The position numbers and the translations under genes are program-made. The notes below the pieces were generated by a model. That model did no database searches. It was given only the letters and a program-made list of their open reading frames with translations, and was not told the origin of the DNA. From IMG/VR virus record IMGVR_UViG_3300032257_000006, positions 1-64,000 of that record: a stretch of DNA of 64,000 bases. One strand, given 5' to 3'. Every line of letters starts with the position of its first letter. Positions within the stretch are counted from its first letter, which is position 1. The DNA comes from a virus (lineage: Duplodnaviria; Caudoviricetes). This document shows positions 19,783 through 23,338 of this stretch, one piece after another.

Positions 19783-19792
19783 AGTTAATTAG

Positions 19793-19910
19793 AGCTGAGA
19801 GCTGGACTCGAACCAACGACCTCCACCTTAATAGGGTGGCGCTCTTCCCGTAGTGAGATACAGTCTTAGCAACAGTCTCACCTATTACCTCGCCTCTGAG
19901 CTATCCCAGC
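19793..19910 (-). tRNA. Atypical tRNA-like RNA: anticodon ATT, ~45-nt insertion in the D-loop, no encoded CCA
   Basis: Acceptor GCTGGGA/TCTCAGC; TA; D-stem GCTC/GAGC with a 53-nt loop; anticodon arm CCACC-CTATTAA-GGTGG; variable AGGTC; T-arm GTTGG-TTCGAGT-CCAGC. Confidence 0.75.
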
Positions 19911-19927
19911 TCTAATTAACCTTATAT

Positions 19928-20035
19928 TACTACTCTTATACAAGAACACTCTTTGAGATTATACCCCTCCCAAGGGGAACCTGCCTCGTTTTACAGAGTG
20001 GGAATACAGGTGAGTGCTCTTATATAAAAATAGTA
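19928..20035 (-). ncRNA. Structured RNA closed by a 24-bp stem
   Basis: 20035-20012 pairs with 19951-19928 without gaps, including 4 G-U pairs valid only on the minus strand; inner stems ACCTG/CAGGT and CCCCT/AGGGG. Confidence 0.6.
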
Positions 20036-20038
20036 GAA

Positions 20039-20073
20039 GTGGGAAGGATCATCACCACAATAGATCCTCCCAC
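20039..20073. other. 11-bp hairpin
   Basis: GTGGGA(A)GGATC / GATCCTCCCAC. Confidence 0.55.
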
Positions 20074-20157
20074 CAAGCTATGACTGGTGTGATTTGGGCA
20101 CCGCCCATTACGTAACTACATTGTCCTATCCTCCAGTTAAGGTTTAGTATTTAAAAA

Positions 20158-22140: not shown

Positions 22141-22515
22141 TTATCGTCCTGAGTTACCTACGTTAGTTACTGCCTCTGCAAAATTTTCTAAACTCTCCAA
22201 AGCCTCTACTGGTGCGAATCTATTCTGTCCACCAGAGTAATCCTTACGGCCGTTACACGATCTGAACAATATCTCGCTGCCACTTCCTGCCAGTGGTTCG
22301 GATACTTGCACATACACCTTTTCAGTGTGTAACGTGACCTCACCAGATACGGCAATGCCGCCCTTATTAACGCTCAGGTCATACTGCCACTTGTCCAACC
22401 CCATCGCCTTAGCTAGGTTACGTAACGCCTTTTTACATTCAACATGAAACGTAGCTTTGTTCCTTTCGTTGTAGCAAATTTGCGACTTCATTATTAACGA
22501 TAATTTTTTACTCAT
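22141..22515 (-). CDS. Hypothetical protein (NKGGIAVSGEVTLH pattern)
   Basis: Start moved to ATG 22515 after the AGGAG RBS and palindrome copy 6. Confidence 0.7.
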   Translation of the reverse strand: MSKKLSLIMKSQICYNERNKATFHVECKKALRNLAKAMGLDKWQYDLSVNKGGIAVSGEVTLHTEKVYVQVSEPLAGSGSEILFRSCNGRKDYSGGQNRFAPVEALESLENFAEAVTNVGNSGR

Positions 22516-22535
22516 TTTAAAATTCTCCTGAAATA

Positions 22536-22551
22536 TTCGGACATGTCCGAG
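22536..22551. repeat. Palindrome copy 6
   Basis: TTCGGACATGTCCGAG. Confidence 0.9.
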
Positions 22552-22552
22552 A

Positions 22553-22585
22553 ATAAAAGGGCAGTACCTCAAGGGCTAGGTACTA
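22553..22585 (-). terminator. Terminator-like hairpin downstream of the ACCA-ended RNA
   Basis: TAGTACCT/AGGTACTG stem, 8-nt loop, then CCCTTTTATT. Confidence 0.55.
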
Positions 22586-22592
22586 CCAAACA

Positions 22593-22741
22593 TGGTGGCG
22601 GTTGCTGGGCTCGGCCTTTGTTATCCAGCGTTAGGTTGCTTGAGCGTTTTCGATTGGTTGTACATAAGACTCTGTAAAGTCTCATACACATAATCTACTT
22701 GCTCGTTGCACCATCAAGAGCAGCTTACAGGCTGCACCACC
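22593..22741 (-). ncRNA. ~149-nt tRNA/tmRNA-like RNA with kissing loops and a 3' ACCA
   Basis: 5' GGTGGT pairs with ACCGCC followed by ACCA; hairpin loops CTGTAA (22730-22725) and TTACAG (22677-22672) are exact complements; no coding ORF with its own start. Confidence 0.65.
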
Positions 22742-22747
22742 ATAAAC

Positions 22748-23338
22748 TTAACTTTTGTAAAGGAAGTGAGTTCCGCCGTCATAGGCTTCCCAATAGTATC
22801 CACGCTCTTCTACAAATTTATTTAATTGGTTGTGTACCATCATGGTATACATAGTTTCGTCTGGGTCTGTCTCCCACGCATCATTACTAAATGCTTGCAT
22901 ACCCTCGATGTAGCTACCTTCGCCAGACCACACAAGTCTCCTTTGGCTATTATCAAACTCACCGCCGTCCTTAAACCAACAGCCTGGAAACGCTAATTTT
23001 AGTTCGCCCAAGATTTTCTTCTTCTCTTCCATAAAGTCTTGTTCAATAAGTCCGTCAGCTTCTACCATTTGCTCAGAGCTAACAGCTGGAACTATAAAAT
23101 CAACTGGCGTCATTCTTAATGTCATTGTGTTACTAACTTGTGTACTTTCGCACAGTTCAATAATTTCCTTAAGCGTTTCTATGTAGGTAGAAGCGTCTTC
23201 AAAATTATCTCTATACTCAGGGTCGTTAGTTAGCATAAATTCTACTGCCGTAATTTTACGGCTTTCAATTTTCTTATCTAGTCTAAGTTTAATCGTTGTC
23301 AGTAACTTAGTCTTGTAAGCTGTCTCTTGGCTACTCAT
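22748..23338 (-). CDS. Hypothetical protein
   Basis: 196 aa; RBS overlaps palindrome copy 7. Confidence 0.75.
   Translation of the reverse strand: MSSQETAYKTKLLTTIKLRLDKKIESRKITAVEFMLTNDPEYRDNFEDASTYIETLKEIIELCESTQVSNTMTLRMTPVDFIVPAVSSEQMVEADGLIEQDFMEEKKKILGELKLAFPGCWFKDGGEFDNSQRRLVWSGEGSYIEGMQAFSNDAWETDPDETMYTMMVHNQLNKFVEERGYYWEAYDGGTHFLYKS

Follow-up and report, generated by a model that had tools for sequence, protein, structure and literature searches.

A structured RNA that lies outside the described families, and of which two members are known, is encoded on the minus strand (positions 22590–22747) of a 64,000-nucleotide stretch of an uncultured tailed phage genome. This stretch (hereafter the window) represents the first 64 kb of the 78,952-bp IMG/VR record IMGVR_UViG_3300032257_000006, whose completeness is about 95%. 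The only homologue found is carried by a related, likewise uncultured tailed phage, G001 (IMGVR_UViG_3300032212_000003; 75.6 kb, with direct terminal repeats), whose terminase is 81% identical, and comparison of the two sequences indicates that the structure of the element is under selection on the minus strand. We consider it rather probable that the element is a new, selected, cis-encoded structured phage RNA in which two complementary loops are paired and a tRNA-like half allows its excision.

The limits of the element are those of the match to a covariance model (R1; 158 model positions), which was built from the two known sequences and scores 180 bits in the window and 178 bits in G001. 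The minus strand of this 158-nt segment folds with a minimum free energy (MFE) of -52.3 kcal/mol and a z score of -4.13, with none of 200 shuffled sequences being as good, whereas the plus strand gives a z score of -1.98; this asymmetry between the strands arises because several helices contain G-U pairs. The predicted structure is a four-way junction formed by P1, P2, a long arm (P3–P5) and P6, all on the minus strand. P1 consists of the 5' strand (A)UGGUGGUG (22735–22744; 7/7 identical) and the 3' strand ACCGCCACC (22594–22602), both of which are invariant between the two phages, the latter being followed by an A at 22593 (C in G001). P2 (22720–22735) is the hairpin GCAGC-CUGUAA-GCUGC, with an invariant loop and a stem that reads GAGGU/GCCUC in G001. 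The junction J2/3, (U/C)CUUGAU (22713–22719), is unpaired in the model and leads into the long arm (22634–22712), in which P3 is GGUGC/GCAACC (GUUUUG/CAAAAC in G001) and the inner helices are poorly conserved. The apical hairpin of this arm carries the loop UUACAG (22672–22677) within the block CUUUACAGAG, which is invariant in the comparison with G001. P6 (22604–22629) is a hairpin with the stem GCUGG/CCAGC and a 16-nt loop, AUAACAAAGGCCGAGC. All of the sequence features listed in a preliminary description of this region were present upon direct reading at the minus-strand positions it had assigned to them, including the hairpin with the CUGUAA loop, the long hairpin capped by the exact complement of that loop, and the GCUGG/CCAGC arm, although the loop of this arm is not a canonical 7-nt T loop. 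On the whole, that account of the structure proved largely correct.

The 5' strand of P1, GGUGGUG, starts at 22741 and can be paired in two registers. In register A, it pairs with ACCGCC and leaves ACCA (22596–22593) free; the window copy then contains six pairs and a G-A mismatch, followed by A and by CCA. In register B, it pairs with GCCACC, the helix reaches 9 bp through flanking AU/AU, and the CC of CCA is paired. Register B is the MFE structure both with the flanks and in the trimmed 149-mer, and accounts for 63 and 93% of the ensemble in the window and G001, respectively, the corresponding values for register A being 37 and 6%. The encoded ACCA tail reported in the preliminary description is thus present in the window sequence, but is not free in the favoured register and is replaced by ACCC in G001. 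Pair 3:70 is U-G in register A and U-A in register B, in agreement with the earlier statement that the G3-U70 determinant is missing. In register A, P6 directly adjoins the 3' strand of P1, whereas otherwise a short spacer separates the two.

In G001, the element is placed between homologues of the same two flanking genes, followed by RadC. Identity over the element is 97/149 (65%), and it differs markedly among segments. P1 (14/14), the CUGUAA loop (6/6), the UUACAG loop (6/6, inside the invariant 10-mer CUUUACAGAG) and the stem of P6 (10/10) are fully conserved, and the junction CUUGAU (6/7), the loop of P6 (13/16) and the last 43 columns (40/43) are nearly so; identity falls to about 50% in the stems of P2, P3 and P5 and to 41% in the long arm, close to the third codon positions of the flanking genes (41–49%). 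The long arm has nearly the same length in the two phages (a difference of 2 nt) despite this near-saturated divergence, and on the 3' side the conserved sequence stops where P1 stops. In both phages, every one of the 27 modelled pairs is a standard one, six having changed on both sides, whereas in slid controls, in which the 3' partners were shifted by 1–3 columns, pairing dropped to 29–63% and double changes to 0–2. The compensatory changes fall in three helices, and the stem of P2 in G001 shows two double changes and one change of C-G to U-G. RNAalifold independently finds P1, P2, P5 and P6. It is the combination of mosaic conservation, pairs kept by compensatory changes and a maintained arm length that points to selection on a minus-strand RNA structure.

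Several observations weigh against this interpretation. The identity of the element (65%) is not above that of the neighbouring genes (60–66%). With two sequences only, the covariation statistics are thin, and the observed values are attained in 8 of 500 shuffles; moreover, P1, P6 and the two loops do not vary and hence give no information on pairing. The MFE structure of the G001 copy lacks P2, its z score is only -1.81, and the consensus fold lies about 1.8 kcal/mol above its MFE. The terminator and palindrome described below precede the next gene in the window only, so that the transcript context differs between the phages. Finally, P6 lacks the T-loop bases U54 and U55, and no tRNA program accepts the element.

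Selection on DNA rather than RNA, i.e. on a protein-binding inverted repeat (CTGTAA...TTACAG), an origin or a promoter, or on a short coding stretch, is very improbable. In duplex DNA, the two loops do constitute an inverted repeat of 6 bp, and in each phage one frame of the 3' block translates as LD(N/K)KGR(A/G)QQPPP, with the G001 frame entering the downstream gene. However, the compensatory changes are found in three helices, the G-U pairs work on one strand only, and no promoter-like site is present on the minus strand of the element. As for coding, the window frame is closed by a stop codon and followed by a terminator before the next gene, no ribosome-binding site (RBS) precedes the frame, and a 2-nt indel upstream breaks it. 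The peptide (LDxKGRxQQPPP) was sought in 18 homologues of the downstream protein, either longer ones, which have N-terminal extensions, or the closest ones, and was found in none of them (0/18), so that this check, too, revealed no hidden copy of the element. In addition, the mini open reading frames (ORFs) within the element show only non-synonymous changes between the phages or lose their frame. One ORF of G001 (L005:1119-1550, minus strand) starts with a GTG inside the element and runs in frame into the downstream gene, giving 143 aa compared with 120 aa from the RBS-preceded ATG; as this ORF shows, gene callers could annotate over the RNA.

The loops CUGUAA (P2) and UUACAG (long arm) are exactly complementary over 6 nt. 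A loop pair with perfect complementarity of at least 6 nt occurred in 8 of 3000 dinucleotide shuffles, and the loop–loop duplex has a predicted energy of -4.1 to -6.5 kcal/mol. Loops of six nucleotides are able to pair over their full length in kissing helices, as exemplified by TAR-TAR*, and a loop–loop contact in the element is probable on the basis of its sequence. Covariation between the loops had been proposed as a check in the preliminary description: the complementarity is conserved in G001, but because both loops are invariant there is no covariation by which the pairing could be proven. In the predicted arrangement, P2 would stack on P3 and the long arm would bend back at its large internal loop, so that P4+P3+P2 (about 14 bp) and P4b+P5 (about 18 bp) juxtapose the loops; the 6-bp contact would then lock P2 onto the tip of the folded-back arm, giving a compact particle.

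The same loops could instead pair between molecules and form dimers or rings, as in the packaging RNA (pRNA) of phi29-type phages. That one RNA contains two perfectly complementary, invariant 6-nt loops is compatible with such self-assembly, and a long rigid arm would sterically ease an intermolecular contact. Nevertheless, this possibility is improbable: the Rfam pRNA model gave no match, the terminase and portal genes are about 10 kb away from the element, which has early genes as its neighbours, and the large terminase is an ordinary one, with no phi29-type features seen. The arm lengths mentioned above (P4+P3+P2 and P4b+P5) also appear to suit an intramolecular contact.

Elsewhere on the sense strand of the early arm, CTGTAA and TTACAG occur 16 and 11 times, respectively, compared with 9.4 expected, and are thus not clearly enriched. 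A 9-nt complement, CUCUGUAAA, of the invariant UUUACAGAG of the element was found at 19990, in the loop of another structured stretch without conservation in G001; this complementarity is probably due to chance. The stretch in question (19928–20036, minus strand) consists of a helix of about 24 bp around a branched domain, and a 161-nt segment folds at -63.7 kcal/mol (z score, -5.8). It is preceded by a terminator-like hairpin at about 20039–20075, and the structure is not detectably conserved in G001.

Resemblance to tRNA is seen in P1 and P6. When R1 was run on an 8-kb T4 locus and a 651-nt Escherichia coli locus, the best full-length matches were real tRNAs, namely tRNA-Thr (T4; 11.4 bits) and tRNA-Gly (E. 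coli; 7.4 bits). These scores are weak, but the alignments place P1 on the acceptor stem, P6 on the T arm (CGA on the CGA of the T loop) and CCA on CCA. A tRNA ancestry of the element is plausible. P1 stacked on P6 would mimic the acceptor/T-arm half of a tRNA, with a 12-bp stack, U at -1, G at +1 and a conserved ACC on the 3' side. We propose that the element is transcribed within the minus-strand early operon and folds autonomously, that enzymes acting on tRNA ends, such as RNase P together with 3'-end enzymes, could excise it from the polycistronic early transcript, and that a stable small RNA would then persist. The mature RNA may serve as a decoy or mimic for a factor that reads the anticodon loop of tRNA-Tyr, or may have a structural or processing role.

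An aberrant tRNA-like gene is located at 19784–19920 on the same strand. It matches the Rfam tRNA model from the D arm to the T arm with 27.7 bits (threshold, 29), is 74% conserved in G001, and contains a canonical GGUUCGAGUCC T arm, the anticodon loop CUAUUAA and an insertion of about 50 nt with its own hairpin near the D arm. It was missed by ARAGORN with default settings and called only in intron or mitochondrial mode. The T arm of this gene ends with CGAGUCCAGC, compared with CGAGCCCAGC in P6.

The tRNA-like traits could be taken further, to a reading of the whole element as a mimic or decoy of tRNA-Tyr, which is unlikely. The element would then derive from a class II tRNA-Tyr gene deprived of its D arm, with P2 as the former anticodon arm, P3–P5 as an overgrown variable arm and P6 as the T arm with a 9-nt insertion, and would show a Tyr-like loop and an acceptor end to an anticodon nuclease, tyrosyl-tRNA synthetase or a modification enzyme, or bind host tRNA-Tyr via UUUACAG. 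The order of the arms is that of a class II tRNA without a D arm, R1 places P1 and P6 on real tRNAs, and CGAG-N-CCAGC is found both in P6 and in the T arm of the tRNA-like gene at 19.8 kb. In addition, E. coli tyrU (which may not be the tRNA-Tyr of the host) reads GGUGGGG...GCAGA-CUGUAAA-UCUGC...CCCCACC-A-CCA, to which the 5' GGUGG, the CUGUAA loop and the 3' CCGCC-A-CCA of the element correspond. However, the loop is 6 nt long instead of 7, and the sequence of the P2 stem varies; the anticodon-like hairpin lies beside the acceptor stem, in the position of the D arm, whereas the two are about 75 Angstrom apart in an L-shaped tRNA. Furthermore, the CCA is replaced in G001 (ACCC) and the favoured register has its CC in a helix, neither ARAGORN nor the Rfam tRNA model recognised the element, and a scan of 36 early-arm ORFs against Pfam and PHROGs revealed no tRNA-related enzyme. 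A more specific proposal, which is quite unlikely, is that a D-arm-less tRNA-Tyr derivative carries the Tyr-codon loop UUACAG on its enlarged variable arm and pairs it with its own anticodon-like CUGUAA; made early, such an RNA might engage and block, or else mislead, a host factor that reads the tRNA-Tyr anticodon loop (e.g. a defence anticodon nuclease) or capture host tRNA-Tyr.

The assignment of the element outside the known families is based on several searches. ARAGORN identified no tRNA or tmRNA in it at the default, -ps or -ps80 thresholds or in intron or mitochondrial mode, and the region 22400–22900 gave no match to Rfam 15 even at E<=10, including the models for tRNA, transfer-messenger RNA (tmRNA), pRNA, T-box, Y RNA, 6S RNA, ribozymes and riboswitches. 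The Rfam comparison with tmRNA, tRNA and pRNA suggested in the preliminary description therefore yielded no family, and its view that the RNA fits no recognised family was borne out. A T-box leader gave no Rfam match, and the terminator is found only in the window and not in G001. A hammerhead-like reading of CUUGAUG...CGAAAA was rejected: the core does not fit, and the Rfam ribozyme models were negative.

No further copy was found by blastn of the element against 50,697 phage records. Scans of IMG/VR with patterns written in the IUPAC code identified no copy besides that in G001; the 63 matches of one scan and both non-G001 matches of another failed R1. One additional pattern match in the JGI metagenomes (L031) had no R1 match, and its ORFs resemble, as read from their translations, a gypsy-type retrotransposon polyprotein, so that it was regarded as a chance match. 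Matches in Sphingobacterium and Cellvibrio metagenome-assembled genomes, obtained in pattern scans of 185,579 species genomes, also failed R1. R1 gave no match in Vibrio phages SHOU24 and 264E42.1, whose terminases are 37–39% identical to that of the window phage; its closest cultured relatives are Vibrio phages. Likewise, R1 detected no element in 25 contigs with a homologue of either flanking gene, in which the intergenic gaps are short, and it gave no third match in any locus to which it was applied. Because many contigs with homologues of the flanking genes lack it, the element is not tied to either gene. Among public sequencing runs, the sequence is contained only in that of its source, a DNA metagenome of a microbial mat, and no RNA run is listed for it.

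These negative results also bear on the idea of a minimal tmRNA-like RNA for ribosome rescue, which had been raised in the preliminary description and now retains virtually no likelihood. In its favour, the window copy combines ACCA on an acceptor-like stem with an open frame closed by UAA: the stretch from GUA to UAA at 22663–22631 does read VQPIENAQAT-stop, as described, but its single-stranded state was not confirmed. Most of it is paired in the MFE structure, where it contributes to the 3' strands of the long hairpin, P4 and P3, and the frame is not conserved (CMMRVENM-stop in G001). The ARAGORN tmRNA mode (standard, -ps and -ps80) and Rfam were negative. The RNA of 150 nt lacks pseudoknots, G3-U70 and a canonical T loop, and its terminal A is not conserved.

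The location of the element suggests another alternative, also unlikely, in which it acts in cis on the mRNA, either as a 3' untranslated region stabiliser of the upstream cistron or as a leader or processive, HK022 put-like antiterminator by which polymerase would pass the terminator at 22560–22587 and reach the next genes. The element occupies a 232-nt gap between minus-strand ORFs of 196 and 124 aa, and in both phages it begins 5 nt past the stop codon of the upstream gene (22748–23338, minus strand). The window copy stands directly before the intrinsic terminator, with no sigma-70-like promoter ahead of the downstream gene (22141–22515, minus strand), and the G001 copy ends 5 nt from the downstream RBS: its 3' end, ...ACCGCCACCC, is directly followed by AAUUUCAGGAGAAC and the start codon. 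Nevertheless, the terminator is missing from G001, so that terminator control is not conserved, no conserved pairing sequesters the RBS, homologues of both flanking genes occur in many contigs without the element, and the Rfam riboswitch and leader models were negative.

The terminator-like feature, correctly recognised in the preliminary description together with the palindrome, is a 10-bp hairpin with a U run at 22560–22587 (minus strand), directly 3' of the element. It lies in the middle of the early operon, and expression of the genes past it would need read-through, antitermination or a promoter other than a sigma-70 one. It is followed by a 14-bp palindrome, TCGGACATGTCCGA, at 22537–22550. 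Both are absent from this junction in G001, and sequence comparison indicates that the terminator and palindrome represent an insertion here relative to G001. The palindrome (centre AT, AA or TT) occurs at 16 sites within 2 mismatches between 3903 and 30290 (e.g. 17552, 19768, 22537, 23351 and 27141), all in the early arm, compared with 0.07 expected. It precedes the RBS of many early genes, mostly in a module consisting of a stop codon, (A)ACTT, the palindrome, A.ATTTCAGGAGAA and a start codon, and the module is also repeated many times in G001. The palindrome may serve as a processing site, an operator or a translational-control hairpin.

The minus strand up to about 31 kb contains genes for a DNA polymerase I-like protein, a helicase, a primase, methyltransferases, a deoxynucleoside monophosphate kinase and RadC, and the plus strand past about 31 kb contains terminase, portal, capsid and tail genes. 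The neighbouring proteins of the element give no functional lead. The downstream 124-aa protein belongs to a family of at least 57 members from metagenomic phage-like contigs, with invariant residues that include K20, N50, G58, E59, Y68, R85, D92, G95 and N98, and it has no match in Pfam or PHROGs. Its AlphaFold2 model is confident (pLDDT 88), and Foldseek found no match to it at E<=0.001. The best VIA-align match had a Z of 6.4 and the conjugation factor PsiB a Z of 5.7 (root-mean-square deviation of 3.6 Angstrom over 108 residues), both of which are below the level signifying more than a common arrangement; the likeness of the model to PsiB is weak. A RadC-like JAB protein is encoded directly after the downstream gene in the window phage and in G001, and in another contig (L022) a RadC gene is located about 1 kb upstream.

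The upstream protein contains a C-terminal domain of 90 aa (22748–23020, minus strand; FPDCWFK...VWSGEGS...RGYYWE.Y..GT.FLY), with a counterpart in G001 (L005:1651-1932, minus strand). This domain, for which no known family or fold was matched, is kept in G001 and in three other metagenomic proteins. It forms a stand-alone protein of 90–93 aa in G001 and two other contig families, and carries an N-terminal extension in the window protein, where the extension is a low-confidence helical region, and in P0061 (147 aa).

Two unusual traits are united in the element: its acceptor/T-arm half resembles that of a tRNA, and its loop pair is invariant and perfectly complementary. If the loops touch intramolecularly, it would represent a new small fold suiting structural study; if the resemblance to tRNA-Tyr is functional, it would be a counter-measure or mimic at the RNA level in a phage–host conflict over tRNAs.

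To our knowledge, phage non-coding RNAs besides tRNAs are few and mostly lack a known function, and the species 1 (rnaC, 139 nt) and species 2 (rnaD, 119 nt) RNAs of T4 are still unexplained. These two are, like the element, phage-encoded non-tRNAs in the size range of stable RNAs (120–140 nt). In rnaC, the 5' and 3' ends pair and a T-arm-type hairpin lies beside the 3' strand, as in the element, but the T arm is a canonical GGUUCGAAUCC one, in contrast to the 16-nt loop of P6, and both T4 genes are located within a tRNA gene cluster. R1 run with filters off on the rnaC/rnaD locus (L036:2909-3172) gave as its best overlap a match at 2912–2939, at the 3' end of rnaC, with 1.9 bits and an E of 9.6, which is noise. 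We know of no complementary loop pair in rnaC or rnaD.

The element shares with tRNA-Tyr (E. coli tyrU) a 5' GGUGG, a 3' CC-A-CCA (in the window copy), the sequence CUGUAA(A) and a T-arm-like hairpin set against the 3' acceptor strand, and differs from it in the absence of a D arm, the 6-nt loop beside the acceptor stem, an arm of 80 nt where tRNA-Tyr has its variable arm, and a 16-nt 'T loop' without U54 and U55. The likeness to tmRNA (ssrA) is confined to the acceptor-like closing stem and the internal open frame of the window copy; the element is half the size of a minimal tmRNA and has no pseudoknots, G3-U70 or canonical T loop, and its frame is not conserved. The pRNA of the phi29 family is likewise a phage RNA of about 120–170 nt with two mutually complementary loops, but these loops pair between molecules (self-association is reviewed in PMC4201828) and the RNA resides on the packaging motor, whereas the element is situated among early genes and is not matched by the Rfam pRNA model.

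A further parallel is offered by the C4 antisense RNA of phages P1 and P7, a phage RNA processed by RNase P, for which the Rfam library probably holds a family. The element has no sequence relation to C4, as judged from the negative Rfam search, and no complementary target was identified in the downstream mRNA. By analogy, however, both may be regarded as small structured RNAs within a polycistronic phage transcript, with a tRNA-like end that RNase P could recognise.

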